Origin: Amphiscolops sp. MND2022 | Lineage: Eukaryota | DNA: 64,000 bases | Reading direction: 5' to 3' | Assembly (NCBI GenBank): GCA_964187785.1 | Contig: OZ076409.1 | Coordinates: 27,406,001 to 27,470,000 of the forward strand | Part shown: positions 1 to 49,559 of the stretch, piece by piece | Numbering within the stretch: position 1 is the first letter of the stretch | Layout: each line of letters starts with the position of its first letter | The notes under the pieces: generated by a model | Seen by the model: only the letters and a program-made list of their open reading frames with translations | Database searches by the model: none | Told to the model about the DNA's origin: nothing | Translations under genes and position numbers: made by a program

Positions 1-447
1 TCCTTGAGACATCCCGTGTATTCCTCATCGCCTCTGTGGATTTCCTTGGTCTGGCCGTGGACAATCGACACTGAGTCCCCCTTTTGCAGTTCCAGCCGCC
101 TTCAACATTTCTTTCCTTCTTCAAAGAAGATTCTGTTCTTCAGTGATTCCAGACAGTGAGACATCCTGTCCAAATTCCTTTGGCTATCCTTCCTTGCTGC
201 AACACGCTTCTTCCAATTTGAAAATCGACACAGGTCAGTAGTTCTCAGGGTTTTTCCTTACATTTTTATTTGATAAGGAACTAAATCGAGGCTTGATCAG
301 GGCTCTCTCTTCGTTCACGTACTTCCTGTCCTTAAACACAAGAATTCACTTGAGTTCAAAAAATCTACTTTCGGAAGAACTTTTAACGCGGTAATGGACT
401 CTTTCTCAGGTAGTTTTCCGCTTGAGATAATCGCTTTCTATTCAGAC

Positions 448-3400
448 ATGTCGTCCGAAGATCGTAATGAAGCCACTCCTGAGTTTACTGCTGAGACGCA
501 AGTAGAAGAAAGCGTGGCACAAACACTCATGGAACCAGAAGCTGGGCAAAGTAGTGAAACCCGTGTCGATGCAGCACCAACAGCATCCAATAAGCCAGAA
601 GGGACAGAGGGTGGTACAGTCAGGGTCAAACCGACCTCCAGTCCGTCCACCGATGAGAGTATCTCCGCTTACATTGAGCGCACCCTGCAGACACCTGACT
701 GTCAATGAACAGGACTTGACATCACTTTCCTTCCTCCTACTGATCCTGTTAGCAATGTAGAGACACAGGAACTAGAAACAGAGAAAGCCTCCGAATCTGA
801 CCCTATTCCACAAGTTGCCGCTGACCAGGGAGGAAAAGCATCAGTTGAAGGAGAGTCAGACCGACAGACCGACGTCAATAGTGAAGCCGGATTTTCCACC
901 ACAAAAGTGGAGTATTTCCAAACGGACACCAGCGAAGTGGAGGAACTTTTGGACAGCTCCGGGGCGGAGACTGCTAAAGATCCGCCAATTTGATCCCCCT
1001 CGATGATATGAGTACCGCTGAGACAGAAGTTTCCAAAGAGGCCGAACACACTCCCACAGGAGGGATTGCAGACTCGAAATTGCTCTTTCCAAGTCGGCCA
1101 TTATCTGCTTCTGCACGGACATTGATTAACCAGCATTTTGCTGAAACCAACCCCAGCATCTTACCAGTAGGCCATTCGACAGTGGCATTCAACCAGGGCC
1201 AGGTCCTTTCTACCCTGTGGGCCGTCTCCAGTGAGACTCTGATCTCATCAGTGCACCTGATGAAGAATATGCTAGAGGAAGCCATGAAGGTAGGGGTGCG
1301 CACTCAGAGCAGTTCGCAAGGAACTAGCCGCCCGATAATCAAATGCATTCGAAAGCAGTCCGAAGGGTCTGAAGCAAGCGGACTGGACAGTGACCCTGGC
1401 ACAGAAGGGTACATAAGCGGTGCTCTCAGCTCTGATGACGAGTTTGTCGTCAATTCGCAGAAGAGGACTCGGGAAATCATAATCACGAGGCCCGGCAGTC
1501 CATCCAGCCAAGCCACAACCACAGCTTCAATTCCGTCTACCAGTCATCAGGTCCCCAGTCCAGGATATTGCGCTACAGACTATGATCCCTTGTCAAATTT
1601 GGCTGTAGATCGATCGCCAAACACCAGTACTCCACGCAAACGCCGCCGCCTCGAGAGCCGATTTGGAAAAAATCATGGAGGAGGCCTATTTCAAGGGCAT
1701 AAAATGGACCCGAACCTTCGCGACTGGCCCACTAGACCCGGAACACAACAAGCATAAATTTTATTGCCAGATTTGTAAGACGGATGTCTCAATCTGTTCA
1801 AAAGGTGCCCGGGAGATTGTTCGACACTTCCAAAGCAGGTCTCACTTTCGCAAAGATCAGCGTTGGAGATTCGAATATCAGAAGAATAGAGACAGGGTCA
1901 CTGGCCGAGAAGTCCATGAGGTCCGAGGGAAGAACGGACAAGTGCTCACGCCTCTAGAACTTGAGAGGGAGAAGCCCATTTTCATGAAGTCAACCTTAGT
2001 TGAAACAGGATGCAGTTATCCTTTTTACGACGAGTACAAGGCTGGGCTTGGATCTGTGGCAAGTCAAGAGGAAACCAAACTATGTGTACAGATTTCCATG
2101 GTCGCCCTCTTCGCTCCTCGCTGTGGGGACTTGCATGTCCTCGAGTCCTTGTGGTCCCAAATTGGCACCGTGACCAATCACCAGGCCCTGTTCTCTCCAT
2201 ACGATTGGGGTTCCAGCACACTAACTGTAAGTATTATTGGTCACTTGTACTGAAGGTCTAAACTGCGCAATATAGCCAGGTGATTGTTCATTCATGTTGT
2301 TCATTTAAGGCAATCTTTCATCACATCTTCCTCTGTGGCATCGCAGACATTGCTTACCAAGTTAGCATCACTGGCCAGTACTCTTTGGAATTCGAGACGC
2401 AAGGGACTTACTGCTTCATTTCAATTCGTTTCTGGAAAGGCAATTCCCTCACTGTTGTCCGTCTGTTGCGTTACCGGACTGCTTCAGAACCAGCTGCAGG
2501 CTTCTTGTTGGCACTTTCTCGATTGCTATCCGTGTTGTCGACACGGCCCCAGATAGTGAGTGTGTCCGGATGCCCCGCCGAACTCATTCCTCTCCTTGAG
2601 CATTCTTGCTTCTTCCAGAAAGGGATTGAGTATCCTTTTCGCTTCGATGCCCTCTCCTTACCCACCAAGATGCACGAGCGATGGGGAAGCGTTTTTGGAG
2701 CGATCCGCTTCTCGCAGCTGAACTTTCTAATAACCTTCCAGGATGGTTGTAGTGGGCAACCCTGGGCCGCCCTGATGCCGGAATTCGTCAAGGTAAGGGT
2801 CTTGTATTTTCGACTGTAGGTCCAGATAGGGATCGGTCCTAATCCTCGTTTTGATTGTAGTCTACTTCTACTTGCCGCTTGGAAATAACTGCCGTCCCTG
2901 GCGTATGTTCTGAGCTGATAGGGAACTGGAAGTCCGTGCACCCGTACCTGGCCAAGATTGCCCCTCCTCAAGAAAACCAAGGGGTGAAAAGCAAGCCCCA
3001 GAGTCTCGAGTGGGAGATCATCGCCGATGACTTCTTCCTCATCAAACTGGAATTCATCGCACGGATCGTTCGTGATTGTTAGTATTAGTTCCCAGTTGCT
3101 TTACTTTTCAATCGTAAAGGTGGGGGTTTAGGTGCTCGTTGAACAGGGTTTTATCGATAATCATAACAGATAGTCGAATCAAGGCCAAGGGTGTCTTGTA
3201 GACATGACGGAATAATAGCACATTTTGTTTTACAGACACTACGAGCTTCAAAAGCCAATTCGCTCAGAGGAGAGAAAGTGGATTCTACACCTTTCGAGAG
3301 GTCCACCAATTCATCCGGAAGTTGGTCACGCGATCTTTGCTTCCCAAGTATGTACCCGAGATGCAGGACTGGAAGGCGTTAGATGGTTTGCAAGGACAAG

Positions 3401-4386
3401 ATTGGCGTCAGTTGTCAAATCGCAATTTCCTGAGCCGTTTGAAACTGAAAGAAGATTTGGACGCAGCGTGCCATGCCCGAGCCAAGCGGGTCCATAGTGA
3501 AAAGAAGTTGACGCCTTCTGAGTTGGACGCCGTCATTGAGGCCATTCGAGATGACTTTGCCACCAAGGCTCGTGGTTACTTAGTCTACCTGCGGGAAGTC
3601 TTCCTTTCAGACATCAGTCTCATTGCTGGTATCGTCAGAGGGTTGGGTAGCTTTGACCCAATTGCCTTGCTGAGGCTCCCCGTTGACCAAGAGACATATT
3701 GCTTCTCTGCCCTGTATCGGTCCTTCAGCCTGCAGGGTTGGTTTGAAAATTCGCCCGAGTCAGATGGTCGGGACGAGTACGTCGACTTCCTGGAATGTTT
3801 CCGCAAGGAGTACTCTGGAATGAAGGACACCCGGGAAGTCTTCACAGACATGGTGTCCTTCCTAATGGAGATGCCTGAGTTGATAATGCGCAAGCATCTT
3901 TTTTATATTTTCCAGCTCAGCTGCTTGTGCTTGACATCCAAATTGCCAGAATTGCCTGCCATCAAGTTCCCCGGAGTGGATTGCAGTGACCCACGGAGTC
4001 GACTGTTTGAAGTCATCATGCCTGCGCAGTCTTACCTCGCTAATGTGGCCGACTCTGTGGCCGCGTGTACAACCGAAGCTTCTCTGGGTACTTTCGAGGA
4101 TCTTGAAGCACGATTAAGCGGTGGTAATATTGCAGGAGATCCTTGGTCTCATGTCGACAGTTTTGGAAAGTCCAACTTCCACAAGGTGCTGATCTCCGTC
4201 CATAAGGCCTTGGTCAAGAGTATGCGACCGGACATTGAGTGTGCCTCTACTACGTCTTCCAAATAGATGGGGAAACAGCACAAACAGTCCCCTGACAAAC
4301 ATGAGAAAGTTAGCTTCAAGGCCGCTAGCAGTTCTGGAGGTGCAAAGCCCTCTGATGGGAACATTCCTGGCACTTCTAAGTCTTAA
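448..4386 (+). pseudogene. Antisense spliced cargo gene of element A, hAT-transposase-like (acidic N-terminus, BED/C2H2-like finger, transposase-like core)
   Basis: ATG at 448 after a TTCAG acceptor. Finger FYCQICKTDVSICSKGAREIVRHFQSRSH. GT-AG introns 2227-2309, 2793-2860 and 3078-3235 join the ORF fragments in frame. Frameshifts near 700, 1000 and 1665. TAG at 4264-4266 is probably premature because the frame stays open to TAA 4384-4386. Confidence 0.75.
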
Positions 4387-4435
4387 ATGTACATAGAGTA
4401 CATTTGTTATAGACTGTAAACTGATTTGTATTTAT

Positions 4436-6790
4436 TCCTTTTATTGCTGTTTCTTGTTATAAACCAATCTTGTTTGTATGTGGCTTTGTATAATTCTAAT
4501 TCGCCACTGGGTCTTCCCTGTTGTATATAGTTATATCAGACAAAAGTAAGTCAGAATAGTCCCAAGTAAAAATAAATGTCCTCTCGGACAGGCAATAAGG
4601 AGCAAAGGGATTAGTAATTCAATTTTCTGGCAAATATCTCTATTCTTCAGTAAAGTTGGGGTTAGAGTTAGGTCTGAGATTGTATTTTTTTCCTCTAGGA
4701 CTAGCATTTTCTTCAAAGTATTTTTTTCCGATATTCCGGGCACGGTAATATCTGCGCCACTGTTTGAAACATTTTCTGCATCTTGTAAATCATTAGTGAC
4801 GTCAATTTCATTTTGAGTCCCATTAGTTGTTTCATCCAATGGTGACGACACGTCTCGGTTATTACGCGGTTGCGTTCGCATTTCATTCTCGTTGACGTCA
4901 TCTTCGTTTGTTCAATCGTTGCAGCTTTCATTCTCACTTGCGCTGCTGCGTTCATTCTCGATGACGAAATGGTCCACACTGCTGTCCTCAGCGTCGGTCG
5001 GCCGGCATGTGGCCACATCGGTCCAATCTACTTGTTTTTCGGTTCGAAAAATTCGTATTTAAATTCTACTTCCCATGAGATAGTATACAAGTCGTCTTGT
5101 GGTATTACTATCTCATTGTCGGGTTGTACTTTTTCGCCATCATATTTGTCCTCTAAGGGTGCATTTGGGACAAATTTCTTTAGTCTATTACGATAGAGTA
5201 CTTGCGTTTTATTGGTATTCAATCGACGCACAATGTAATTGTCATTGGACAATACAGTCTGAACGACAAAGGGGCCAATCCACCTGTATTCCTTGAATGG
5301 GATTTTTGATGCTTGACTATCCGCCTTAGCTTGTAGATCAAAACAATAATCCTTCTCTTTAAGCGGAACCGCTTTGGCCTTTTGGTCGTAATAGTCCTTG
5401 TACTTTAAATCGGACTGCATTTTATTCTTTTTAGTTTGGTCAATGAGGATTTGTGTCCTCTGTTGTACTTCTTCCGCAAATTCCGTATTTGGCAGGAAAT
5501 TTTTATTAGGGTTGTTCCCAATTGGTGATCTAGGACGTTGAAAGGAATTTGGTCATGAAAGACTTTACTCGGCTCACATTCAATACTGGAGTGATATGTA
5601 GTATTGTAGTATATGTCCTTTTATTGCTGTTTCTTGTTATAAACCAATCTTGTTTGTATGTGGCTTTGTATAATTCTAATTCGCCACTGGGTCTTCCCTG
5701 TTGTATATAGTTATATCAGACAAAAGTAAGTCAGAATAGTCCCAAGTAAAAATAAATGTCCTCTCGGACAGGCAATAAGGAGCAAAGGGATTAGTAATTC
5801 AATTTTCTGGCAAATATCTCTATTCTTCAGTAAAGTTGGGGTTAGAGTTAGGTCTGAGATTGTATTTTTTTCCTCTAGGACTAGCATTTTCTTCAAAGTA
5901 TTTTTTTCCGATATTCCGGGCACGGTAATATCTGCGCCTCTGTTTGAAACATTTTCTGCATCTTGTAAATCATTAGTGACGTCAATTTCATTTTGAGTCC
6001 CATTAGTTGTTTCATCCAATGGTGACGACACGTCTCGGTTATTACGCGATTGCGTTCGCATTTCATTCTCGTTGACGTCATCTTCGTTTGTTCAATCGTT
6101 GCAGCTTTCATTCTCACTTGCGCTGCTGCGTTCATTCTCGATGACGAAATGGTCCACACTGCTGTCCTCAGCGTCGGTCGGCCGGCATGTGGCCACATCT
6201 GTCCAATCTACTTGTTTTTTGGTTCGAATAATTCGTATTCAAAATCTACTTCCCATGAGATAGTATACAAGTCGTCTTGTGGTATTACTAGCTCATTGTC
6301 GGGTTGTACTTTTTCGCCATCATATTTGTCCTCTAGGGGTGCATTTGGGACGATTTTCTTTAGTCTATTACGATAGAGTATTTGCGTTTTATTGGTTTTC
6401 AATCGACGCACAATGTAATTGTCATTGGACAATACAGTCTGAACGACAAAGGGGCCAATCCACCTGTATTCCTTGAATGGGATTTTTGATGCTTGACTAT
6501 CCGCCTTAGGTTGTAGATCAAAACAATAATCCTTCTCTTTAAGCGGAACCGCTTTGGCCTTTTGGTCGTAATAGTCCTTGTACTTTAAATCGGACTGCAT
6601 TTTATTCTTTTTAGTTTGGTCAATGAGGATTTGTGTCCTCTGTTGTACTTCTTCCGCAAATTCCGTAGTTGGCAGGAAATTTTTATTAGGGTTGTTCCCA
6701 ATTGGTGATCTAGGACGTTGAAAGGAATTTGGTCATGAAAGACTTTACTCGGCTCACAATCAATACTGGAGTGATATGTAGTATTGTAGT
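4436..6790. repeat. Tandem duplication of 1175 bp (4436-5610 and 5616-6790) covering the integrase C-terminus
   Basis: Direct repeat at offset 1180, about 16 substitutions by eye, ATATG filler at 5611-5615. The ORF track shows paired near-identical ORFs. Confidence 0.97.
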
Positions 6791-9700
6791 TGAGCACGGC
6801 TAATGGCAGGTATTTGTGCCATTGTCGTCGATATTCCCCTGAGGCCATTTTCAAGTTGGTCTTGAGGGAGGCGTGCGTCCTTTCAAGCTTGCCAATTGTT
6901 TGCGGGTGCTTTGTAGTGGCGCATTTGAGTGTTATGCCCAAAATTTGAGTTATTTCGGCTATGATGGTTGATGTAAATGCGGACCCTTTGTCCGTAATGA
7001 GAGTTGTCGGTAAATATGAATGTTTCGTCATGATGTCTATTATTACCTTGGCTACATTTGTGGCTGTCGCTTCAATTAGCGGGTAAGCAAATAAGTATCT
7101 TTAAAAAACATCAATGGCTGTCATTACAATCTGATATCCGCCGCTGGCTGGTAGATTTGGTAACAAATCCCTTTGCATGGCATCTTCAGGACCAAGGTCC
7201 CATTCGGGCAAATTTAGTAATTCTGGTGTAATGGTGTTATTAGGGACCCGTTTGTCTCTGGCACACGTTTCACAGCCTTTGACCCACTTCTTGACGTGTT
7301 TTGCTATCCCATGGTAGTAGTATTTTTGGCGGATTTCCTGTAGCATTTTAGAAATGCCCGGATGTCGATGTGCCGTGCCATGAATTGCTTGAAATAATTC
7401 CTTCGAGAGGTGTTTGGGTAATAAAATCTGATGGTATTTGATTTGGCCTGTTTCAGCATAGTATTTTCTTGTCGCAATTTTGTTGTTTGAGGACTATTTG
7501 GTCTAGGTTATTCAAATAATGTCTATACCGGATGTCCTGTTGTAAGATTTCGTCGGAATATTCTTCGTTCCAAATTTTTGCTTTTAATTGAAGCAAGATC
7601 TGGTCTTTGGATTGTTCTAGCAGTATTTGATTTGTTCTGCGAAGTTTCTGGGTGAAATTAGTGATTTCTTCTACAACGTTTTCAGATATGGCATCAATTT
7701 GGATGACGGTCTCCGCGACCTTGATTCCTGTTTTTGATTGCCTTTTTCTTTCCCAAATTTGTTCTTCTGTTTCATTGTCTTCTTCGGTAAAGAACACTTG
7801 CTCCTCGTCGGACACGCCAGCTGATTGGACATTGACTTCAATAGGTTGTGTTTCAACGTCTGCGCGTTTTTTCAGGACCAGCTTTTCAGTGGGATCCATT
7901 TCCCTACGGGACAGGTAGTCCGCCGTTGTGTTATTTTGGCCTGGAATATGAGCTATAGTGAAATTGAACTGAATGACAAAATCACATGGATTTCACAAAG
8001 GTGGCGGTATTATCTTGGTCTGGAAGAACCTTGTGACCGATTTGTTAACCGTAAGGATAATCACTGGTTTGGGTGTCCCTCAGAATATATGTCCGAATTC
8101 CTTGAAGGCGTTGTATATGGCGAGAATTTCTTTCGCATATATTGACATTTTGAGCTGGGATGGAATAAAAGTTTTCGAGCCGTAAGCAATAGGCGCATAG
8201 AATTTCTTGACTGAAGTGTATTTCTGATTTGGATCATCTTCAGTAAGTATAGCATATCCTGCTGCTGTAAAGCTGGCATCTGTCATTAGGACTAGCTGTC
8301 GATTCGGCAGTGGTTGCCGCAGGGCTAGCTGGCTGCATCAATCCAGGTTTCTATTGATTCCGTTGAATTGTTCAACCAACTCTGTTGTCACTAAGACCTT
8401 CTCGTCCTACTCAAGTAGTTGAAAGAAGGGAACCAGTTTTTCTGACAGTCTCGGTATGTAGATTTGGTAGTAATCCAGGAATCCAAGGTATCGTTGCAAG
8501 GCCTTTTTGGTTTTCGGGAATTCGATTTCTTCTAGGAAGTTTATAATCTTTCCTTTTGAGGCTTGACGCCCTCAGGGGTGATAGTTCTTCCTAGGAAGTC
8601 AATTTCGGTTGCGCCAAAGTGGCATTTGTGCATGGTCAACTTTAAACCAGCCTCTCTGATGCATTCAAAGGTTGCTCGGAGATTTTTGATCAAGTGTTCA
8701 GCATCGTTTGCCGCTATGCCAAAATCGTCGACATAGTGTGCGCACTGGTCAGCTTTGATAACGCGGTCCAAGTATTCCCTCAAAAAACTAGAGAAGGCCG
8801 ACAGGGCTCTACTGAGTCCTTGTGCCAATCTTCTGTAGGCGAATGTTCTGCTGGCAAAGTTGAAAGCCAGCATTTCAATGGACTTTCGGTCCGCCATCAG
8901 AAAGCAGTGATACGCCTGTGAACAGTCGAGTTTACAAAAGAGCTTCTTCCCGGCCATGTGTTGCGCGGCGCCCGTCAGGGTACTAACTGGGTGGTTATTT
9001 TTGATATATTCATCGGAGATCAGATTATTGATCTTCCTGAGGTCAACCAGCAACCGTGACTTCCCGTTGGGCTTCTTTTGCGCAAAAATAGGACTGGCGT
9101 ATTTTGAGAAAAGCATTCAACAAAAATGTCCTCTTTTAAATTGATCGGAGTTTGTAGGCTCTTGCTGTAGGCCGGTGAGTCGTCCTTTGGGGTCAATTTG
9201 ACCGTAAACTCCTCATTCATACCAATATCAAATCTATGTCCTGCAAATATGTCGTAGAACTCCACTAAGAGGGCTTCTATGTGCTTGATTTCGTGTGGTT
9301 GTAACATGGAATCCTTCCAGTCGAAGTTGCTAAGAAACTTTCGCCGAGATTCTTCCTTTTTTGTGGATTGAGGCTTCATGCTTCTCGTAAGTTTCGTAAT
9401 TCTCTGAGAATTCTTTTTTGTATTGGCGTGTGGGACGCTTCGTCCCCCGGATTCTCAGGTGTTGGAAACCAATTTTGTTCGTATTGTTCGTTGTTCCTGT
9501 TGGCTTTAAGAAGGCTGCTAATATAGTGAACAGCGTCTTCTTCGTTTTCATTGAGTAGATGCCAAGTGGACACTGGGTCTATTGGCCTGACGTGTTTCAT
9601 CTGCTCAGGCGTCATTACTGAAAAGTTTGCTATGTGCATTCCCTTTTTAAGTTTGTAGGGCTGGTCAGTGAAATTATTGACGTGTATCCTCGTAGACCCT

Positions 9701-10849
9701 TCATTTAGCGTGATTATAGCAGCGCAAAAGGTTATATCACTTTCTTCAATTAGGAGTTCACTGGGCTGTAGTATCCCAGTGACAGCATTTTCTGCGTAAA
9801 TTTGGGCTAAATAGGAATAATTGTGCGGTCATTTGGCGGGATCATTACATCCTCACGGTTGAGAATGGGTTCCATGACATTCGAGTATTTGTGGTCAGTC
9901 GTTTTCAATTGCGTCGAGAAAAAGGGAAATTTTAGTATGCCTTGGCGCATATCTAGGACTGTGTGGTTACGTTGTAAAAACATCAGTCCAATTATAGGGC
10001 TGGATATTTTCTCCATTACAATTAGGACTTCATGGAACTCAATGTCCCCCACTTCAAATTTCAGTTCCACGGTACTCTTTGGTTTCTCTAGGTCTCCATT
10101 TGCGATCATTATTTGGAAAGATGGGGCAAGTCCCTCTTTGACTATGGATTGAGGCGCTAGTAGCCGTATTTTCCTGAAGTCTGCCTCTGGTATTGCACTG
10201 GAGTGGGCCCCAGTGTCTATGAGTCCATCTATCGTTAGTTCTTCGAAGTCCATTGGAAAGTATAACATCCGTCTTTTGATTTTGATTCCAAGGTTTGTGG
10301 AAAGGGGAACGTATGACGGTTCGCCCTGTTGTTCCACTAGAAGATGTAGGAAGGCTGTTTCGCCTAGAAGGCTGTTGAGGACTTGATAGTCTTCCTGGTA
10401 TCGAGGTTCCTCTATTTCTTCTATGAGTGCTTCAGAATTCGGCTGCCAAAGTTCAATGAGGGCCCTAGTGAGTTTGGTGTCCTCTATCTGGGGATCGTCC
10501 TCGTCATCCGTTAGTGGATAGTCATCACGTCTGAATTGCAGGTTTTGTCTATCATATAGTTCATCGTCCCAATGCCGTTTTCTGGGTCAGTATATTGAGG
10601 GTGATAGTCTTCGACCAATGGTAAGAGACGGAACTGAGTTTCGAAGTCTTTAGTATAGTCAATTTCGTAGAATAGGTCTGGGCAATCGTTGTGTACTTGT
10701 TTATACGTTTTGATATAGGCCTTTTCCATCTGTTGCTGCCAGACGACGGATAGGGTGCCATTGGTGTCCTTTTTATATTGTCGAAAGGGGATAATTTGAG
10801 GATCCGACATATAGTCATGTCTTTGGAGTCGTGGCACAATTAGTTTTTT
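5820..10849 (-). pseudogene. pol: pol of element A (PR, RT, RNase H, IN), disrupted
   Basis: LIDTGA protease; RT LDCSQAY and YVDD; RNase H TDAS; integrase HHCC, ITDKGSAF, GKLER and WIGPF; split by frameshifts and stops. Confidence 0.93.
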
Positions 10850-12535
10850 GGATCAGTCTTTTTGGTATTGGATTGGCTTGAATTAGTAGCCACCGAGTCA
10901 CTGGTTGTTTTAGGATTTCCCTCAGAAGTTGAGGCATTTGCGTTTTTTTGTTCTGTCTGTGGCCTCTTGGGAAGCAGGTGAGCGCCAGCGCCTTGCCAAC
11001 ATCTTTCAGTTGAATGATTCTTTTTCCCGCATGTGTCGCATGGTGGGTAAGTTGGACGCTGCGGTTTCTTGCCATCTTTCTCATCCATCTCTTTCTTCTT
11101 TTTGAGTTTAAGACAGCTTTTGTAGTGATGTCCCGTCGCCTTACAATAGGAGCACTGGGCGTCTCTGTTGATATTGATGCCGTTAGACAGCAAATTGCTC
11201 TGATTCGTGGACGCCGAGGCCATGGTGGCCATTGGCAAGTCACTGACTCTTCTAATGCTTTGAGTTCTAGTCCTCTCTCGAGATGAGCAACTATTTCTTC
11301 GTACGTTCCGTTTTCCAATCGGGCCATGTTGACAGATCGATTTAGTTTTGGTGGCAGTTTCGCGTATAGCAAGCAGTCAATCATGCTTTTTGCATTATCA
11401 CCAAAGGCTTTTTCGGCCCCTTGGTTCAATTTTTCCAAGAAGTCCGGCAATTTCATGGTACTTGGGTCGAATGTCAGTCGATGCCATTCGTGTTTTGCCG
11501 TTGCTTGGGATTCCGGTTTCAAGTACTTTCTCCGGAATATGACCAGTACGTCATATAGAGTCTGACGATTGATGGAATTTATGTTCCTGAACGTCTGTAA
11601 TGCCCCTTTTCGTAGCAATGAATGGAAATGATTGGTTTTCATCTGCTCTGTCATTGCGGGTTGCATTTTGATCATCGTGTGGAACAAGTCCTCGAAAAAC
11701 TCAAACTTTTCGCTTTTCCCATCGAATGTCATTGGCGTTGTTTGGACTGGTCTAATGGTCTAATGGTCATGGATTGAGGTTTGTTTTGTAAATTGACCAA
11801 TACATCAGCTAATCTGTTGAGCGGGTCCTGTGAAAGCTCATGGACCTCGGGGTCTGGGGCTGGCAGAGTCGCGTCCAGAGAGACATTGTGTTTAGATTGT
11901 TGCCTCTCCAGGTTTGGGATTGAGTGGATTCGTCCAGTCAGAAATTCAGGAATTTGCTGTTGGGTGTCAATGGCTCCTGTCACCATGTAAGGACTACAAC
12001 CTTTAGTGTCCCTCAACTCTCCTACGGACCTTGAGTCCTTTTTAGCGATCTTCGTTTTTTGCCCAGATGCGTTTTCCCTGTTTTCCTTACTATTAGGGGA
12101 CATACTGTCCTCAGTGTCCCTGTGACCTGCAGACGACCCTGAATATGCTATATTTTGAATCTCCGGGATGACTCTTTCAGCTATAGCTATGGTAATAGCG
12201 CTGTTTATCTGACTATGCCTCATGGACATCATTGAGTCCATTTCTTGGGACAGCCTAAGATTGAATTCATTTGAAAGAGCCTCAAACGACTGTCTAACAT
12301 CGTTTTGCCTCTTAGAGTCATTTTCATTTGAGAAATAACCGTACTCCTTTCTATGGTACGTATTTGTATTTGCGTCCCCGTGGACCGATGATTGCTCTAT
12401 AGCGTCAGCTAATTCTCTTTCAATGGGATTGTTATTATCATTTCCCAACATTACGTCTAAGTTATCGTAGTCAGACATCATGTCCATTTCTCTAGATTTC
12501 ATGGCTTTTGCCTTTTGTTTTCTTGTTGGAGGCAT
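10840..12535 (-). pseudogene. gag: gag of element A, frameshifted, starting inside the 5' LTR
   Basis: ORFs 11729-12535, 10815-11732 and 10840-11238. Knuckles CSYCKATGHHYKSC and CDTCGKKNHSTERC. Ends at AAAAAAC TAA. Confidence 0.9.
11974..11985 (-). promoter_or_regulatory. Primer-binding site of element A (TGGTGACAGGAG)
   Basis: Directly follows the LTR-terminal CA. The same 12-mer follows the 5' LTR of element B. Confidence 0.85.
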
Positions 12536-13494
12536 AAGAGATTGTTACAAGATAAAGATGTAAATTATCTTTGGCTTGGAAATTTAGTGTGATATTACTA
12601 AGCGATAAGTAACTTCAACATGTAGTATCATTCAACAATTTTGTCCCCGGGACTAAATGTCCCGGCTATATATATTAGAAACTACATGACATTCAAAATA
12701 TGAGTTGTCATATTCTAAAAATAGCCTTAAGGGCTTTCTAAAAATAGCAACAGTTCTAAAAATAGCAACGGGTAACTAGTGACATCATCATGATGTGTGT
12801 GACTTCAAAGAGTTTTCCCGACAGACAACGTGTTGGCGGGAAGCCCGTGTGTATACTAGACATATTAACAGCATACATATACTAAAGCAGAATACATGCG
12901 TTTCAACATTTTACATGAGGTTTATCAATAGCACGCTACATTTCGTTAATATGCGGTCTTTTGACACTAAGTGTCCATTTTATGAGAATATAAAGGCCTT
13001 TCCAAGTTCCAAGTAAGTGTACTTGTCATTTAGCACCTTTAATTCAAAACTGGACTCAGCGTCCAATCGACATGGTAGTCCTAATTTTATTTGTTGACAG
13101 GCGGCATATGGCCGTCTAGTCCATTGATCAAAGCGCCGCATAAAGTATTAAATAAGAGCACTGGTTAATTAACTACTGCACTCTGATTGGTTGAAGCTCA
13201 TTCGGACTTGCTGTCGAAGGCGACAGGCGAGGAATCATTTAAACACGTTTCCTCTACCTGTACGCCTTGGTGTCCAATTTACTAGCAACGTACAATTAGC
13301 GCCGGTATTACATAACACTAAATCATAACTTTAAATGATATTTTACATTCAAAATAAATGAATTACATGACTTCTAAAGTATGAATGCAGTTTAGTTTAG
13401 GAGTTTCAATTTAAAGGGATTGTGCTGGGTAGGGCTTTTCGATAGTCATGGCAAATAGAATACATGTTGCCATCACAGGCGGACGCCTGGGACA
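11986..13494 (-). repeat. 5' LTR of element A (about 1509 bp)
   Basis: Minus strand TGTCCCAGGC...CCTTACA. The inner end is set by the PBS and the outer end by similarity to the TSD-bounded solo-LTR end at 55209. TATA-like run near 12667-12675. The partner LTR is not in the window. Confidence 0.75.
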
Positions 13495-14185
13495 GTGGGT
13501 AAGGGGTTCCACAGTTGAAAAGTTTGTTGTACAGGTTTGTTTTTCAAAAAATTGTAGTTATTCTTTTTGGAAGTCTTCAGTCGATCATTAAGTTGATGTT
13601 GTTGCTGAGATAGTTCGGAGCGTCTCGCAATAATTAAAACGTTAACTGAAATATTTTCTTCCTGAAAACAGATTCTTACAAAAGAATAGTATTGTATTTC
13701 AGGTACGCAAAATTCTTCAAAATATCCACCTCAAAAAAATTTTCAAGAAGCACTTCAAGAATGGGGAAATAAAAAAGGACAATTACTCTAATATAAGCGG
13801 CACACACTATGAATTGAAATCAAAAAGGTAAATGCTTAGGAAAAATGACGTTATTCCACATTTTTTCCTCAAGTTTAACTTTCTCAGATGAAGTCCTTTT
13901 TGGCTGAACGCATGGAAAAAATGGGAAACAGAAACTACCTAGAGATGGCTTTTCGACCCATACAGTATCGATGGCAAAGCAAACTCAGAATATACTGCAA
14001 TTTGAAAACTTTGTCGCAGTTTTGTTTTATGATGCTATATACTTCTTACATATCATGTTACATGATTGTTTTATATGATATTATATGAATGTTAAAGTTC
14101 TGATTTCCTCTCAGACTTGTGGTGAGAACAGAAGTGCACTCTCTGAATCAGTTTCGATCTTTTGACAACTTCTGACCGTGATCAA

Positions 14186-14475
14186 TCATGCTGAGTTGGG
14201 AACAATGAGAGGAATTTTGTTGTTGTAAGACCCCGTTTCGAGTCTAGCAAAGTGGTAGAAGTTTTGGCCCTGACACTGCGCATTTTTGTACATGTTTCTG
14301 TAGTAGTACTGTCTTCCAGCTGCTGAAGACTGTGTCGTAGTTTCCGCCGTTTCTTGTTCAAAGTTGACCAAGTACTTGTTCCAGTCGACTGGAATGTAGA
14401 ACTTGCTGCTCTGGATATTGAGCTTGCAACTCGCGTAGTAGCCAGCAAAGTCGCAAGGCTCTTGCAGAGCCATAT
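14186..14475 (-). CDS. Probable host coding exon (Cys/Tyr-rich, unknown product)
   Basis: GC-richer 95-aa ORF in AT-rich DNA, preceded by a TTTCATTATAG acceptor (phase 1). No transposon motif. Confidence 0.45.
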
Positions 14476-14629
14476 CTATAATGAAATATAATTAAATTTA
14501 GAAATAATGAAAATCGTAAGAGAAAGCAACAGATTTAAAAGCATAATACAATATTTCGATAGTTGGTTGATTTTGATGTGTCAAAATGGGGAATCACGTC
14601 ATTATGCATATTACGTGATAGCGATATTA

Positions 14630-16450
14630 GCTGATCGATATTATAGCAAATTGAAACTTAAACTAAACAAGACGCCCGCTGAGCAGCGAGATATTTTCCG
14701 CCCCAAACTGTTCTACAACTACATAAATTTGAAGCTTAAGAAAAGCCAATGCTCTATAAAAACGCAAAGAAGTTCGCATAAAAGAAAATTTTGATTAATT
14801 TTAGCCCATTTTTAAAGGAAACACCTAATTTATTATTTCTGCGATAGCTGGCCACTTTCCTTTTTTCTGCACTAAGCGACTTGCCGAGAACAGAGAAAGT
14901 TTTCGTAACTTTTTTCTCAAACAATTTTCGGAAAACAATTTTCGAAATTTTTAGTTTTTGAGGTTTTCTGTAAAAGAAGAAAGTTGCCCGAGTCTTAAGG
15001 GTGACTTATTTGTTACTTTTGATCATATGGAACTGATGAGTTTTCTTATTCATAGTGCAAAATACCTCATTTCAGTTTTTTCGTCTCTGTGCGTCTTTCG
15101 GAAACTTTCATTTGGTCAAAGTGTAACACCTTGCTTCTTTAGTTGATTTCGGCTTGCTTGAGAAAAGTTTTGCCAGCTGAAAGTCATAGGACTTTACCAA
15201 ATATTCAAAAAATTGAAAATTTTTGTTGATTCCTGTTGGGGAAAAAGTGTTCTCCGACGCTCAGGCGTATTTTTCGGGGCAATTTTTGGCCCTGAGAAAA
15301 TAGGAAAAGCTTGAAACTGGTTTTTTTGCAAGTTTAGGAAACTTGACGGGCCCTGTTTGTTATATTATTGCACATAGTTTCATCAGAAGTGTCAAAATTT
15401 GGTAATAATTTTGACAATTTTGGGGGTAAAGTTGAGGAACTTTTGTCAAAAATCTGAAAAAATACATAAAGAATTTGAAAATTGAAAAATTTTGGGCTTT
15501 TTGTCATTTTCTATGCTGTTTTGGGACATTTTTCGTTCAAAAACTGCAATTATCTTTTCATAAAAGACTAATGGACAACCAACCCTTTCACTTGTTCACA
15601 CTCTCAAACATTCCATAACGCGAAGTTTGTGGATACATTAACAAAAATGCATAAAATCTTTGAAAAGTGAAAAATTTTGGTTCTTTTGTGGCTTTCGGTG
15701 TCATTTTGAGACAATTTTCAATAAAAAACTGCGTTTATCTCTTCATAAGAGACTACTACACAACGACGTTGATGAAGGTTTTCAACATTCAAATCCACTG
15801 TCGAAATTTTGACCGAAGTTGCAGAAAAATCTTGAAAAATGGAAAATTTTCGGTTTTGTCTTTTTCGCTGTCAATTTGAGATTTTTTTGAATTGGAAAAC
15901 AACTATTACTATTAGCTCTCCAGAAAAGCCTACTGGACAACAAATTCGTGCCATGTTGAGCGTTTTCAACATTTTAATCCACGAAGTATATCGAAAATTT
16001 GACAAAAATTGCATAAAAACATTGAATATCAGTGAATTTTGGACTTTTTGTCATTTTTGGGGTCACTTTTCTTCGAGAAAACCGCATTTATCTCTTAAAT
16101 TAAGAAAGTTGGACAGCGAATCCGTGCCTTGTTGAATGGTTTTAACATTTTAATCCGGCAAAATTATCGGAATTTCAACAAAAGCTGCAGGAAAACGTTA
16201 AAACTGGGATGTTTTTGAAATTTTGCTATTTTCGGGGTCATTTTTGGGTCATTCTGGGGTCCTTGAGGGTCAACCAAAAAAGTCCAGAAATCTGCACAAA
16301 TACTAATCACTTGAAGCTGAGTTTATGCGAGTTGAATTCTATGGGCAAAACCATGAAGGTAAGTATAAATATGGTGCTTGGGAAATTTTGTAGAAAAAAC
16401 GTTCGATTTAAATATTTTCCTTTCCCATATGAAATAAGGGCGGAAAAAAT
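14630..16450 (+). repeat. AT-rich dispersed repeat with degenerate ~180-bp internal units, unclassified
   Basis: Units recur near 15480, 15670, 15840, 16030 and 16210. Segments 14650-14750 and 16390-16445 match the reverse complement of 61060-61150 and 58415-58470. Boundaries approximate. Confidence 0.65.
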
Positions 16451-16509
16451 GAAATTAGGAGAAATTTGAATTATAGCAGCGCTGAAACAGAAAATTCGCA
16501 AATAGAGAT

Positions 16510-17441
16510 TGGCAGAACGAGTCACGTTCGTGTTAATAACGGTGTTGAGACCGCTACATTCGGTCGTCGGTGTTGATATTTTCTCGGTAAGGGCTAACAC
16601 AATGTTTGTTAATTCGCTGATTTTTTTATTCATCTCCATAAAACGTTGATCAACGGAATTTGAGCTAGAATTTTGTCTAACATTGATTAAATCTCCATTC
16701 TCGAATTCATTCATCTGGTTTCTAGATAATGTGTTAGGAAAACTATATTCGCTTTCGTTGTCACTATTCTGTTCCATTCCGCTGGAACATGCAGCATAAC
16801 TATCTACGTTTTGAGATCTGGTATTGACCATCTTTGAATCTTCGAAAGGAATTGTTGCTTTTGAAGGTTTATTGATTTTAATAGGAAATATGAATAATCA
16901 AGTTTCGACTAAATCAATGAGGTAAGCAACACTACGTTAGGCTGTGTAAAACTTCGTACTGCTGATACTTCAACTCTTGTCGCAAATTTCACTGCAGTTG
17001 GTCACGTGACCGCATTGGCCAATAGTATTGCGCTATTGATTAGGTGTTAATTGGTGCGTCCTGCTGGTAGCAACGTAAATGGTGTTTTGTACAAAAGGTA
17101 GCACCAATATGTTACCATGGTTACATGAATCATCTATCATTTGCGTTGGTTGATACAAATTGCGTCTATGATGGTGCACTACCAACGTTATATATGATAC
17201 TACATTTTACTGATGAAATTAAATATGGTGAAAGCTCTTGTACGAAGCGTGTAATGAGTAAATGATGTCAACGTTTACAATTCGTTTTTTATTTTAGGAA
17301 GTAATAATAATGATGGGATAGGCCCGTCATTGTTCAATGGTAATTTATGGTTATTGAAATATCAAGAGTATTATATTTAACTGAGTTTTTTAAATGTTTA
17401 GATTGTTTTTTATCAGTTTCATTCATGCTTCCGGCATGACA
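16510..17441 (-). repeat. 3' LTR of element B
   Basis: Direct repeat of 31237-32168 at offset 14727. One terminal substitution (TGGCA for TGTCA at 16510). Confidence 0.97.
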
Positions 17442-17453
17442 CTCCCCCTCTTT
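17442..17453 (-). promoter_or_regulatory. Polypurine tract of element B (AAAGAGGGGGAG)
   Basis: Purine run on the minus strand abutting the TGTCA start of the 3' LTR. Confidence 0.92.
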
Positions 17454-18475
17454 AAAAGAAAAGGCGAAGTGTAGGGGTCTTTGGAAATCTGGTAGCGGGA
17501 AGGTGAGGTAAATGTGGTAGCTTCACTTATGCAGTAAGTATTGGCTGTTAAATCTTCCTACGAGGGTGATTTGGCTGGTGTAGTGACCTCAACTACTTTT
17601 GGACTGTCCGTTACGGATGATGTCATAGCAACCACGTCGGTATTGATGAGTTGCATTGATGGCTTTGAGTACTCGGCTTGTTTGGGACCAATTGTTACTT
17701 CGATTCGGTACAGCAATTGAGAGGAAGAGAATGAGTTTAGCGTAACGAGTGAACACCTTCGGTAAATAGTAATTGTAGAGTCGGTGTGGCGAGAGTAGCC
17801 ACGTCATCCAATTGTGCGCTTCGTTTGTAGTGAGAGTTTAAGAAAGAATGAATTTGCCGGAAATTAGTTGAACGTGGCAGCGTGATATAATTACTCGGCT
17901 CATTCGGTAACTGTTCGGAAGTAAATGTAGTGGAACATCGTACGCTTTGTCAACAAATCTTCGTCGGTGCTAAATACGAGAGTAGAAGTAAGCTTGGTTA
18001 CGGTTGATTCAGTTATTGATTGAAGTTGTTATTATCCAGTTAGCGATATACCAGGCGGATGTGATTTGACTAGCGGTAAATCGGTTCAGTGAATGCTGTC
18101 TGCATCTAGGTTACTCTGCGTGGAAAACCTCAATTGCAGCGTAGTAAGACTTCCGAATTTGGCATTTTGTTTTCTTGTTTTTCTCTTTTTCCCCTTCTTT
18201 TCTTTAGTTTTGAGTAGGATCCAGCGATCTTTAGTTTTTCGAACGCAACCGTTCTTTGAGTTTGAATTTTTTCCCAATGAATTAATTTCGAGTAAATTCG
18301 GTTGAAATTGCTCTTTGTGATATTCCGGTGTCTTGTGAACACGGAGGGTGTGGGTGATCAGACCACATCTCGTATTGTCAAAGACGCTGAAGCCTGGTAG
18401 ATCGCGAATTCTACAGTTATAGATCCTTGTTGTCTCGTTCGCCATTTGTTGTTCGTGATTAATTCCATTACTTGG

Positions 18476-21400
18476 ATGTTATCCCCCGAGTTGTCTGAAG
18501 AAGAAGTTGCATCGATTGTGATAGCCGCGGAAGGCGCGCTAGCTGAGATGTCAAATTTGGAGCAATTATCAGATGAAGAAGGTTTCCAAGCCTCAGTTGA
18601 TACGTTGTTGGAAGGAGAGACGCCATCTGTGTGCTGCCAGTTTGCTCAGCGTGTGACTTCGTCTAATGTAGAGGCTGCTACTACTTTGTTGGAGATAGCT
18701 CTCTCCAGTGAATTCCGTAAGTAAATCCGTAGTTATCGTTTTTCCTTCTTCTGGCTACTGAGACGGTCTTTCAACGTGTTTGTTGTTGTGTGCTTTGTAG
18801 TTAGGGCTAAACTCGTCAAGGTAATTGAAATGTTTGTTGCATTGGTATTTGTGTACTGTAGTTACCAACGTCTTGACTAAAAGGACTTCCCGGGAACTAT
18901 TACCTTGGGTAGACTTCTGGGCATTGCTCATGGTACTCATAGGTTAGATTGTACCATGTATGTTGCAGAATCTTTGAGTCTGACCGATATCGTCGCCGCT
19001 CTACGACGAATGCTTCAACAGAATGAGCCTCCAGTATATGCATCTCCCGCGAGTGCCGTCGAGACTGGGCTCCGGAATTATGTATACAGCCAAACTGGTA
19101 AGTCTGTTCGCTAACTGGTTCGTTATTGTAACGATGGTGTTATATGATCGTTACTGATCCGTACGGCGTGTCGGTTGTTTATGGTTGGCTTCGAGATGCA
19201 CTCTCGTTTACACGATGTGTAGTACTCTGCGTTGTTATCTTTTGGGTGGGATGTTTCCAGGTACAGCGTTGGGTGACTTGTTAACTCTAGACGACGTCGT
19301 TGCTGCTATCGCTCGACTGCAAAAGGAGATGTCCGGCGTGGTTAAGGCCACCATCGAATCCACTCTTGGTCAGCTCGGGACAGTTGGGGCAATGGCTGTG
19401 GATGAGTTTGTTGGTCAACTGACTGCAGCAGTTTCCCGTTTAGTCCCTGCTAGTGGCTTGAAAGCAACCGTGCCTGGGGAGGATGCCCCCCTCATCTCGT
19501 CATCATCATCTGTGGGTGTTGCGCCAGTTGAAGGTGATGCTCAAAAAGACTTGTCGGTCGTAAGCCGGACGGCATCGATGGTTCCTTCCATTTTTGGAGA
19601 GGGAACCGTAGCAGGATCCTCCAGTGCAGGGAAAGTGGCTGCTGCTAAACCTGGTAAGAATCTCAAAAAGATCATGGGCGGGGTTTTAGTGAACAATAAT
19701 GTTAAGATTATCAAGAGACAAGACTAGATATATATGTTTTTTTTTGTTTTTGTTTTTTTTGTGTATATGTATATGGGACTATTTAACGCGTTGTGTGTTT
19801 GCGTTCTAGCTCGTGCTCGGAAGATCAAGACGCTCAAGCCGTCTTACTTTGTTTCTGGCGTCGTGGGGACCTTCGTTGGGTTCCCCCAGAACAAGCGGGT
19901 GATTGACGGTTACGCTCGATGTTTACTTTGTCGTGTGGATTTGAGAATTGCAGGACGTGGTCTGTCGTCGTTATGGGATCACTGGAAAGGAGTTGAACAC
20001 ACCCGATTGGAGCAAAAGTACAGGATTATGACACACAGGCCATTGCTGGACAAGTCTTGCAGACTAGTATCTGCAGAAGAAGATGCTCGTCTGACCGAAC
20101 CGCCGGTCTTTCTAGAGTCTGCGCTGAAGTTAACTGTGGAGGAGCGAATAGCTATTGAGGAGGCAGAGGCTGAAGAAGGCGCGCGTCCCCAATTGCAGGA
20201 CGAAAGTGTGAATTACTTGTGGCTGAGTAATTTCGTCTCAAGTTTTCTGACTGTGACGTCCTTTGATGGGGTGCTCCGGGCATTGGACTCATGGAGGGAC
20301 TGTATGGCCAACGAACTTCGTTTTGAGTGCCGTACTCTGACCTACTCTCGTTGTCAGGTAAAATCAAGTTTTGCAGTCAATATTAAGTTGTACTGGCTAC
20401 TTAGGTAACTTGCTAGTCACGTGGTTGTTATCGGTGCATTGTAACGCTTTTCGGGTACGGGTGTTGTGTTTGCCTAAGTTTTTTGGTAATTTTATCAATT
20501 TGTTTGATTCTGTTTAGAGTCTTGTGCTGTATGGCTTATACCAGTATGCAATTGAGCAGTTGGTCGCACTGGTTGCAGCAAGCTCTTGCATCGGTGTTTG
20601 CATCCGTCAGTGCCATTGGCGGTGGTGTGGTGAGCTTCACATCGTTGGCGCCCATGGCATAACTTCAGTGGTCTTGGCGCTTGTTTCCGGTGGAACTGGG
20701 TGGGAGAAGCGGCTGTTGAACAACGTCATCCCAGTTCTTGCGTGTCTCAAAGACAGAACTCAATTGAAGACGATTGCGGTGGAAGGTGACGTACATGTTG
20801 GGCGGGCGTTGGCTAAGAGGTTTCGCCTAAGACTCTTCTCGTGGTGGGGTTGATTACGCAGCGGTCAGTGTTCAACGAGGTAGAAAAACAGTTTCTCGCA
20901 GAGTTCGCGGGTCTAGATCCTCTCAGTGTCCTGGAATACTTTCGTGTGAGGCTGATGTCCGTTGCTCAAGAGGGTTTCTTAGACCGTTTGCCGTTATTGC
21001 AGCGGGTTAGTAAAAAAACCCCTTTTTTTGTTTTTTCTTTTTTTTTGTATGTGGGTCATGGCATTTGCGTAGGTTTTCGATTGTTTGGCTCTGGTGAAAA
21101 GGTAGATCGTGTTCTTGTTTTGTAGTATATTCGACTTGGTGGAGATGACGTGTCCCAACTTGCACTGGTTTGCGCAGAAGTGGTGGACTATTGGAATGAT
21201 TTGGCGCTGTACTTTGGTACTCATAGACCGGGAGTGACGTCGGAACTGCGTCCGATTACTCCACTAGAAAGTCAGGTGTTCGAGGATGCACTGATTCGGC
21301 CTCGTTTTGCTGTTCTGCGCTTAGTGCTAGATTTGAGTGAGTATGGGTTTGTATGCTGTTGATCGGATACTCATTTGAGTACACGTGTAGCTGTAATTTT

Positions 21401-22861
21401 GTATGTTGAATATGGTCCAAAATTAGGTTAAGTGGGGACGTATGGAGCTAAAGTTTCGCGTGTACAGTTTGGTGTGTAACCCATTGGTGTTGTGTTTTAG
21501 TGGTTAAGCACTGCCCTAGTTTGTGTGGACGTGGACGCGATTATGGAATTGTCTCGGAACGGGAACTGGCTCACCTTTTGCGTGGACTAATGAAGTTTAT
21601 CTATCCGGCTCACAGTATTCCAGCGGAGTACGATATCGCTGCCTTGTTGAAAAATGTGGACCGGGAGTATGCCGACGTAGACTCTAACATGTACAGATTA
21701 CATTTCGGGCAGTACTTCCGTTTTGACATCAGCACTCAACTGCCTTTCTTTTACAAATCTGTCCAGAAAATGTTAGTCGGTATATGTCGTGGATTGAGCG
21801 AATTGTGGCAGCGTACGTGGCCCCAGCATTTGAGCTTGACTCCATTTGATCCGGTTCTCATTCATAGTGGGTCGGATGATCGCTGTGTCGACTCCTTAGT
21901 AGCAACTTGTGCTGTGTTGACTGCTCATGGGCTTGTGGGACTAGATGATGGCGGAGTAGTTCAGCAACAATATCGCGAAGTCACCCAATTTTTCAAGAGA
22001 CGCTGGGCCTCTACTGCGGAAGAACTACCAGTAGTGGAGGACATTTTCGCGTTGTGGATGTCGTATCCTCACTGGGAGCGATGCGAACAATTGCGGCAGG
22101 TCATCGATCTGGCTTTCAGTGCAGTGGCCACTAGTTCGTACCGGGCGGATTTTGTGGATGACGTCGGCGGAGCTTTGGATCCTGATGAACTGGCTTCAAG
22201 TGTGCATTTCGTCCGGAGTTGGTTCAGTGAGTCTTTTGTGGGGAAATCGCGTCGTCAACTACGTGGTTTGTTGCGTGTCATTGAGACAACTGACATGCAA
22301 GTGTCTCGCTTAAACGATAGCGTTCGCGCTAAACCGTGGGATCAACTCCTCAAAGTTGGACTGGATCAAACGTTGTCCTTGTGTGTATCCGTGTTGGACA
22401 ATGGTCCTGATACTGCAGTCGTTCCGGTGGTGGATGAGTATCGTTCGACAGTACTTGCGCAGTTGAACGTTATGGCGGTAATGGCAACGAGCCCTACCCG
22501 TGTAGCGACGGATTCTAAAGCGATGCCATCCAGTACAGACGCGAAATCCAAACGGCCCCGCAGTCAGTCTGATGTAAAGTTGAAGACTCCCAAGAGGACG
22601 CCTAACGTGGCTACGGTTGGAACCTCTAAATCTACTGGGCGAACGAGAGGCGTTGTGGTCAGTCGACGAGGTCATAGTGCAGCGGTGAAGTCTGGAAAAG
22701 GACGGCGAACTGGCGAGAAACCGCATGCATCTAAGAGACTTGTATTATCTACGGCGGCAAGTGAGGCTTCAGATCATGGTAGTCAATCGTCCAGTGACGA
22801 TGTGCCACTGTCTACCACTAAGCGGACGAAGCAGGTCATCCGTGATTCGCCGGATGAATAG
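18476..22861 (+). CDS. Antisense multi-exon cargo gene of element B, hAT-transposase-like (at least one frameshift near 20840)
   Basis: Frame-preserving GT-AG introns 19098-19260, 19654-19809, 20358-20517, 21006-21125 and 21337-21500. The first intron (donor about 18717) is unresolved. Finger ARCLLCRVDLRIAGRGLSSLWDHWKGVEH; 453-aa last exon with a basic tail. Confidence 0.75.
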
Positions 22862-33154: not shown

Positions 33155-33330
33155 ACAAATGTAAGTGCTCGAGATTCAGAAGGTTAAGTAGCGAAAGCAC
33201 GAATTCTTTCATATTCATTTTTAAAAAATCAAACATACAGTATACAGTATGTTTGATTTTCAAAAATTGAATTTATAAGAATTCGTGCTTTCGCTACTTA
33301 ACCTTCCTAATCCCGAGCCCTTACGTTTGT
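33155..33330. repeat. Imperfect palindrome, ~86-bp arms, centred on TATA 33241-33244
   Basis: For example GAAGGTTAAGTAGCGAAAGCACGAATTCTT is mirrored by AAGAATTCGTGCTTTCGCTACTTAACCTTC. Confidence 0.92.
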
Positions 33331-33370
33331 GATTTCTCACTTTCTCAATTTTTGTCTCAGAAATTTTAAA

Positions 33371-49450: not shown

Positions 49451-49559
49451 ATAAGGAGTGATTGTATTTGCAATTTCAGTTATTTGGCATGTATGAATTT
49501 CAAATTAGTACTATCTTTGTCGTTGGTAGACTTAACATCTACTTGATTTATTCTTTTTT

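Follow-up and report, generated by a model that had tools for sequence, protein, structure and literature searches.

An intron-bearing antisense gene, likely of hAT transposase ancestry, in Ty3/gypsy retrotransposons of Amphiscolops sp. MND2022

Introduction

Retroelements are expected to shed introns. How, then, have coding introns persisted in two Ty3/gypsy retrotransposons, here called A and B, found in a 64,000 bp stretch of the Amphiscolops sp. MND2022 genome (assembly GCA_964187785.1, contig OZ076409.1, positions 27,406,001 to 27,470,000; hereafter the window)? Both elements lie on the minus strand, and in both a plus-strand gene divided by GT..AG introns sits between pol and the 3' long terminal repeat (LTR). 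The A and B genes are homologous, their exons evolve under purifying selection, and some clades of relatives lack single introns precisely. We consider it rather likely that a clade of Ty3/gypsy elements carries a conserved antisense multi-exon gene, likely a dead hAT transposase, which is spliced and whose nuclear product acts on the element's own DNA.

Antisense accessory open reading frames (ORFs) as such are already known in plant Ty3 elements. The available portions of two papers (PMC7264820, PMC11963269) place them between pol and the 3' LTR in maize Grande (gene23), rice RIRE2 and Silene Retand (TRP28/PF04195) as well as in the fungal element Boty, and describe their origin and function as unknown. 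For the Grande ORF, the same portions report its own promoter and a nuclear product. The review among them (PMC7264820) calls, in the part available, for a search for spliced antisense transcripts and states that these ORFs have no similarity to other transposons.

Results

Two antisense genes with the same intron pattern

The window contains three LTR elements, all on the minus strand. In A and B, which belong to Ty3/gypsy, gag, protease, reverse transcriptase (RT) and integrase were detected on that strand (Table 1). The domain order of B after gag is complete (protease, RT, RNase H, integrase), and in A, which is broken, protease, RT and integrase are still in order. Target duplications of 5 bp flank both elements (GTGGG for A, GAGAT for B), and the LTR pairs are 94% identical in A and approximately 99% identical in B. 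The primer binding site is identical in the two, a purine tract adjoins both 3' LTRs, and the integrase cores share 49% identity. Both gag-pol and the antisense gene are disrupted in the window copies. A first-pass annotation of the window had proposed that the introns are antisense to the genomic RNA, and the strand of gag and pol, the primer site, the purine tract and the target duplications all bear this out.

The six introns listed in that annotation, three in each gene, lie where it placed them and have the phases it gave, 0, 0 and 1 in both A and B. All begin with GT and end with AG, and their removal joins open frames in both genes. Three more phase-1 GT..AG introns, absent from the list, lie upstream in B, so that the B gene has seven exons from an ATG at 18476 to a stop at 22861. 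The first B donor is conserved in 18/20 B loci. In intact A copies the first exon is undivided and can reach 600 or more codons. In the window A copy this exon is disrupted by stop codons and, near 1670, by a frame shift, and exon 4 carries a premature stop at 4264-4266, with AATAAA at 4571. The exon between introns 1 and 2 is usually 486 nt in intact relatives of A and 489 nt in those of B; as this exon (exon 5) has 488 nt in the window copy of B, its frame is lost near 20850.

Between the A and B proteins, identity is approximately 15%. Exon 1 of A matches its B counterpart by BLASTP (E=3e-6). For exon 4 no similarity was seen in a pairwise BLASTP comparison, and profile comparison linked the two with a probability of 92% (E=5.5e-7); for the whole core the profile probability is 98.9% (E=2.4e-16). 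The annotation had placed all three introns at equivalent protein positions. In the profile alignment this holds exactly for introns 2 and 3: intron 2 falls within a gapless block, between PEFVK and STST in A and between PLLQR and YIRL in B, and a conserved R-[ED] pair stands at residues 12-13 downstream of intron 3 in both. Exon length and the exon-2 alignment (162 versus 163 aa) agree within one codon for intron 1, and the region is shifted by approximately 12 residues in the global profile alignment; equivalence is consistent with the data for this intron but not proven.

Splice sites and selection

A splice-aware search, which presumes GT/AG and counted some loci twice, recovered the junctions in copies of both A and B. 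Exon 3 has a constant length, 217 nt in 37/37 A rows and 211 nt in 29/30 B rows. A second test covered 37 further loci, which are related to each other and include the two reference loci, and took the exon ends from protein similarity only. This placed 127 introns, of which 122 start with GT, 124 end with AG and 119 do both, against background frequencies per position of 0.06-0.10 for GT and 0.06-0.07 for AG. The 3' ends of the introns are pyrimidine-rich, as in U2-type spliceosomal introns. Intron bodies have diverged, and their lengths range from 64 to 255 nt across copies. Natural junctions without an intron exist for introns 2 and 3 and for a fourth intron (2b), in each case with the frame restored. 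At the level of sequence, these base-exact absences confirm the junctions independently of RNA.

Stop-free cores with intact sites were found in 28/51 copies, and 18 pairs of these intact copies were used in a selection test. Three older pairs could be measured, and their ratios of non-synonymous to synonymous substitution (dN/dS) were 0.03, 0.04 and 0.06. Synonymous sites were saturated in 12/18 pairs, with proportions of differing sites of 0.74-0.89 (synonymous, pS) and 0.10-0.28 (non-synonymous, pN) and an intron identity of 0.33-0.69. These substitution patterns indicate that the exons are under strong purifying selection. Together with the precise intron absences, they fit the earlier proposal of long selection on a spliced product, and we predict a spliced mRNA made from the gene's own antisense transcript. 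Two points weigh on the other side: dN/dS was 0.16, 0.21 and 0.54 in the three youngest pairs, and the test took only the 28 intact copies of 51.

Intron 2 is 68 nt in 37/37 A rows and is more conserved (0.66-0.71) than the neighbouring introns (0.55-0.65), which may reflect constraint on the genomic RNA strand.

Loss of single introns

The introns would pass through replication because the genomic RNA reads them as CT..AC, which the spliceosome leaves alone. Single introns have disappeared from some copies. Intron 2 is missing to the base in 5/37 loci, located on five contigs and 98-100% identical to each other; four sisters at 90-91% identity retain it. As the LTRs of one element without intron 2 are identical over 1733/1733 bases, recent transposition has spread this loss. 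Intron 3 is exactly missing in 15/37 loci, and four database proteins (P0029, P0075, P0135 and P0143) are also continuous across its junction. The fourth intron (phase 0) divides the 217 nt exon into 135 and 82 nt in 36/37 loci; it is absent from L093 and from the families of window A and window B. No copy without intron 1 was found. L116 and L117, with long open frames over exon 2, were considered as intron-1 losses and rejected, as intron 1 is present in both.

A tree was built from 41/51 copies by a quick search with SH-aLRT (approximate likelihood ratio test) support, leaving out ten with frameshifts or more than two stops. The clade that lacks intron 2 (5 rows, SH-aLRT 98) lies within a clade that lacks intron 3 (10 rows, SH-aLRT 99), itself nested among intron-bearing clades. 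As the absences are nested in this way and B has both introns, we conclude that they are losses. The fourth intron was either gained early on the A side and then lost twice, or is ancestral and was lost three times.

End microhomology at intron 3 was found in 0/35 copies. Slippage between short repeats therefore cannot cleanly remove this intron, which argues for loss via a spliced template. Intron 2 is less favourable to that explanation: it has 3-nt end microhomology in 21/44 copies, so its loss could be slippage. Quite probably, single introns were lost when RT used spliced mRNA as template, and the intron-less copy then multiplied. The spliced mRNA would have the polarity of minus-strand complementary DNA (cDNA) and could be copied in plus-strand synthesis or act by cDNA conversion; it could also pair with genomic RNA, which would allow introns to be lost precisely, if rarely.

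Family size and co-divergence with integrase

The genome is 1.07 Gb. When it was searched with A exon 4, there were 7,234 first-look candidates, a figure that is not a copy number; the 118 that were scored are 75-100% identical. The corresponding search with B exon 4 gave 976 first-look candidates, of which 131 were scored, with identity down to 53%. Exon 4 is matched by 414 clusters (50% identity). The best matches in the genome to two database relatives are just 46% and 29-31% identical, and these two therefore likely come from other genomes. The exon-2 and exon-1 profiles found 117 and 91 unnamed database proteins, respectively, all without Pfam domains. In a search for longer database proteins with exon 4, spliced or fused, 0 of 4,588 candidates were scored. 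No relatives were found in metagenome and viral collections, and no stand-alone host copy of the gene was present among the loci fetched.

An antisense integrase lies downstream of the gene in 62/65 long loci (7/7, 18/20, 20/20 and 17/18); the 65 were selected via the gene, and gene-less elements lie outside the count. The three exceptions are a rearranged locus, one with a same-orientation integrase next to the gene, and one with a 4-kb stretch that has no match. Gene and integrase distances are correlated (Spearman 0.85, pairs of 20 elements, kin not being independent), and the main clades of the two trees agree, with the window-B subfamily discordant. For this subfamily, where the trees conflict, L058 and L066 share 72% identity in integrase and 78% in the antisense gene, which suggests exchange of pol between subfamilies. 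The gene diverges far faster than integrase, with 37% versus 82-93% identity between A-side subfamilies. L074 contains the antisense gene twice, the two copies being inverted relative to each other, head to head.

The first-pass annotation had inferred one ancient capture; a single ancient origin agrees with A and B being homologous, with their common intron positions and with the co-divergence with integrase. That annotation included neither the turnover of introns within the family nor the probable hAT ancestry. The introns may have been gained after capture instead of arriving with it, as five hAT ORFs of the same genome (L096-L100, intronless) run unbroken for 597-697 aa.

Origin of the protein

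We regard derivation of the gene from a hAT transposase as probable. In exon 1, the C, C, H and H of the zinc finger are invariant in 20/20 copies; Pfam zf-BED matches 1/20 (E 0.2) and another C2H2 family matches 9/20. Basic motifs precede the finger, and long disordered ends are predicted. The model of exon 2 has a helix, three strands and a helix, and that of exon 4 is helical, with predicted local distance difference test (pLDDT) scores of 52 and 86, respectively. When 48,161 chains were searched by structure, Hermes was the sole listed row covering most of both models, in collinear order: exon 4 aligns with Hermes 367-609 (Z 5.1, root-mean-square deviation [rmsd] 5.8, 175 aligned) and exon 2 with Hermes from residue 153 (Z 4.0, rmsd 4.3, 99 aligned). 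Among the Foldseek results for exon 2, Hermes chains ranked 2, 6, 7, 8, 10 and 11 (best E 0.08). The Atlas was queried with a natural intron-less frame joining exons 2 and 3a, and the five family-labelled rows shown are hAT-derived clusters, with scores of 0.81-0.86, which under 0.9 count as leads only, and recognition 3121.

The link to hAT is weak in each test taken singly. Z scores of 4-5 are at background level for models of this kind, other rows rank above Hermes for both of them, the confidence of the exon-2 model is low, and all of the Atlas scores fall below the level noted above. Two looks at Foldseek for exon 4 did not list Hermes, and neither model gave a Foldseek match at E<=0.001. 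For exon 4 the Atlas pointed to GBP/Sey1 helical bundles (low recognition, 994), a lead that was dropped as a generic helical match. Gene profiles run against the hAT ORFs of the genome found nothing beyond a zinc-finger match (E 0.006, 59 ORFs). Profile-profile comparison with 20 of the genome's hAT loci yielded probabilities of 0.1-0.3%, like those of the controls, and the Pfam hAT families matched none of 79 exon-4 members. Searches of PDB sequences gave one chance match and were otherwise empty; DUF4371 had no match in the genome or the controls and is hence uninformative.

Catalytic sites were mapped from the order of structural elements, not by residue-level superposition. At the position of the first acid of the D-D-E triad, on the first strand, 20/20 A-side copies have E and 8/8 B copies have no acid, and where the second and third acids would be expected, none is conserved. 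Gapless pairing of exon-2 residue 1 with Hermes 153 places the invariant A-side glutamate at the first catalytic aspartate of Hermes, which we take to be D180. A catalytic triad is thus not apparent in these sequences. Terminal inverted repeats around the gene were sought in three elements, and just short, chance-level arms were seen, none of them shared. As no triad is apparent and terminal repeats are missing, we do not class the gene among the hAT transposons. Its product is likely a hAT transposase that is catalytically dead and works as a hAT-derived scaffold; the gene would fairly probably have kept the zinc finger, the RNase H-like scaffold and the C-terminal helical part and lost the triad and the terminal repeats.

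Alternatively, the gene could be a captured host gene, or encode an unrelated zinc-finger and helical protein. The lack of any significant sequence or profile match to hAT and the middling fold scores speak for such an origin, which we nevertheless judge unlikely, because two exons folded separately both meet Hermes in the correct order, the Atlas leads to hAT-derived clusters, and the fetched loci include no stand-alone host copy.

Discussion

Proposed function

The mRNA would very probably be driven by an antisense promoter within or close to the 3' LTR, and the host would splice the transcript. The protein may bind the element's LTR or chromatin, so that transcription is kept or silencing averted. 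A nuclear factor tracking subfamily-specific DNA such as the LTR would fit the basic motifs, the finger, the disordered ends and the fast divergence under purifying selection. We put this role forward tentatively, at slightly less than even chances. The same tentative weight is given to the combined proposal that a retrotransposon has domesticated a DNA transposase as an antisense multi-intron regulator from which RT strips introns singly via the spliced antisense mRNA.

The main rival to an LTR regulator keeps the same gene and origin but gives the protein a role in integration, in which it would bind the pre-integration complex or target chromatin and steer or import the cDNA. Presence of the gene in nearly all of the elements examined (62/65 loci) agrees with this, as do the basic motifs upstream of the finger and a transposase scaffold suited to DNA ends; nuclear import has been proposed for the plant antisense ORFs in the available part of PMC7264820. 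The gap between 37% identity in the gene and 82-93% in integrase is more readily explained by a DNA target that changes than by a conserved partner enzyme, and a separate mRNA has no obvious route into the particle. An integration role therefore seems unlikely, though it is the strongest competitor to regulation of the LTR.

Nesting of elements is common in repeat-rich genomes, and with a transposase ancestry likely, the gene might be an independent DNA transposon inserted by chance in these retrotransposons. This very improbable reading is largely refuted by the same site and orientation in families with 49% identical integrases, the co-divergence with integrase, the lack of convincing terminal inverted repeats in 3/3 elements and the absence of an apparent triad. 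Equally improbable is that the introns are unspliced spacers between separate ORFs, or remnants: GT..AG stands at 119/127 similarity-placed boundaries despite diverged bodies of 64-255 nt, and base-precise absences restore the reading frame.

Comparison with known systems

Like the plant antisense ORFs, as described in the available text of their papers, the antisense gene has the same place and orientation and is kept in most copies (62/65 loci here). Unlike them, it contains 2-6 spliceosomal introns; the word 'intron' never occurs in the available text of the Retand paper (PMC11963269). The protein is also unrelated, as Pfam scans (exon 3 was not scanned alone) found no match to PF04195 (TRP28) in the antisense gene.

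HBZ of human T-cell leukaemia virus (HTLV) 1 and APH of HTLV-2/3/4 are, in the accessible part of PMC10186651, encoded by antisense mRNAs that arise from the 3' LTR and are spliced, and are nuclear regulators of their own LTR. The gene described here resembles them in that an antisense mRNA is predicted to come from the 3' LTR side and be spliced, and in that its product is a putative nuclear regulator. HBZ and APH differ in belonging to retroviruses and in being basic leucine zipper-type (bZIP) or other small proteins, and from what that source gives, their spliced forms depart from the unspliced ones at the 5' end, whereas here several conserved introns lie within the coding core.

With Hermes and the hAT-derived ZBED5/FAM200, ZMYM1-like and GTF2IRD2 proteins, the antisense gene product may share a predicted order, in which a zinc finger is followed by RNase H-like strands, a helical insertion and a C-terminal part. 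It differs from them in that a triad is not apparent, terminal repeats are absent, the N-terminus is long and disordered, and the gene is housed in a retrotransposon. Domesticated hATs act as transcription regulators.

VANC of the Arabidopsis VANDAL elements, a fast-evolving, element-encoded DNA-binding factor with anti-silencing activity, is a model for the proposed function; VANDALs are DNA transposons of another superfamily.

Among animals, bdelloid elements and planarian Burro are Ty3/LTR elements that have captured extra domains (PMC5408684, PMC6431247). In the retrieved text of these papers, 'intron' occurs 0 times and once, respectively, and no antisense, intron-bearing ORF is described; the captured ORFs in the retrieved part of PMC9289625 likewise include none that is antisense with introns, and PMC9911081 was uninformative about element structure. 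Searches of the open literature showed no description of a multi-intron, hAT-like antisense gene in the titles and abstract openings listed, a scope that leaves most subscription journals and Repbase-type entries outside.

What is new here is that natural copies lack single introns to the base. Three coding introns persist across the split between A and B, at which protein identity has dropped to approximately 15%. For antisense accessory genes, whose origin is given as unknown in the part of PMC7264820 available, recruitment of a class II transposase by a class I element is a candidate origin. As clades with precise single-intron loss can be dated by their LTRs, the RT model of intron loss can be put to the test on a large number of copies, among them a case free of microhomology. 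If the combined proposal above is true, the loss of introns, and perhaps their gain, would be recorded in progress in thousands of dated copies. A conserved, predicted DNA-binding protein encoded by the element may also help to explain its spread in the 1.07-Gb genome.

Other features of the window

Table 1. Positions of elements A and B and their antisense genes in the window
Feature	Position	Strand	Details
Element A	LTR upstream of window (L041:6945-8432) to 13481	-	
A exon 1	394..2226	+	Acidic low-complexity N-terminus, RKRRR basic motif, C-x2-C...H-x5-H zinc finger
A intron 1	2227..2309	+	GT..AG, 83 nt, phase 0
A exon 2	2310..2792	+	483 nt; predicted helix, three strands and helix, RNase H-like order
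A intron 2	2793..2860	+	GT..AG, 68 nt, phase 0; exactly missing in 5 copies of another subfamily
A exon 3	2861..3077	+	217 nt; 135+82 in most distant subfamilies via extra phase-0 intron
A intron 3	3078..3235	+	GT..AG, 158 nt, phase 1; exactly missing in 15/37 distant loci
A exon 4	3236..4386	+	Helical domain, similar to C-terminal half of Hermes
A gag-pol	6585..12544	-	gag, protease, RT, integrase; split over several frames
A 5' LTR	11986..13481	-	3' LTR partner is L041:6945-8432, before window start
Element B	16510..32168	-	
B 3' LTR	16510..17441	-	GAGAT at 16505-16509; purine tract 17442-17453
B exons 1-3	18476..19809 (18476-18716, 18969-19097, 19261-19653)	+	With three phase-1 GT..AG introns
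B exon 4	19810..20357	+	Zinc finger; homologous to end of A exon 1
B counterpart of A intron 1	20358..20517	+	160 nt, phase 0
B exon 5	20518..21005	+	488 nt, frame lost near 20850; 489 nt in 19/30 rows
B counterpart of A intron 2	21006..21125	+	120 nt, phase 0
B exon 6	21126..21336	+	211 nt
B counterpart of A intron 3	21337..21500	+	164 nt, phase 1
B exon 7	21501..22861	+	Helical domain, then basic low-complexity tail
B gag-pol	25013..31236	-	gag with CCHC knuckle, protease, RT, RNase H, integrase; broken
B primer binding site	31224-31236	-	
B 5' LTR	31237..32168	-	GAGAT at 32169-32173

Element A contains a 1,180-bp tandem duplication (4436-6795) that spans the tail of integrase and, from the antisense gene, the end of its 3' region. 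In B, an ORF running from within the LTR into gag (16307-16897, 31237-31624) has a weak match to DUF7243.

The third LTR element (36409-54802) belongs to a distant lineage, its integrase being 23-25% identical to those of A and B, and no copy of the antisense gene was found in it. A fragment at 41368-41925 within this element matches the viral fusion glycoprotein family PF24664.

Two adjacent, near-perfect foldbacks resembling miniature inverted-repeat transposable elements lie at 33155-33330 and 33357-33636, with arms of 88 and 140 nt and no spacer. A repeat array with a unit of approximately 180 bp occupies 15457-16069 and has an inverted relative 42 kb away at 58414-58910.

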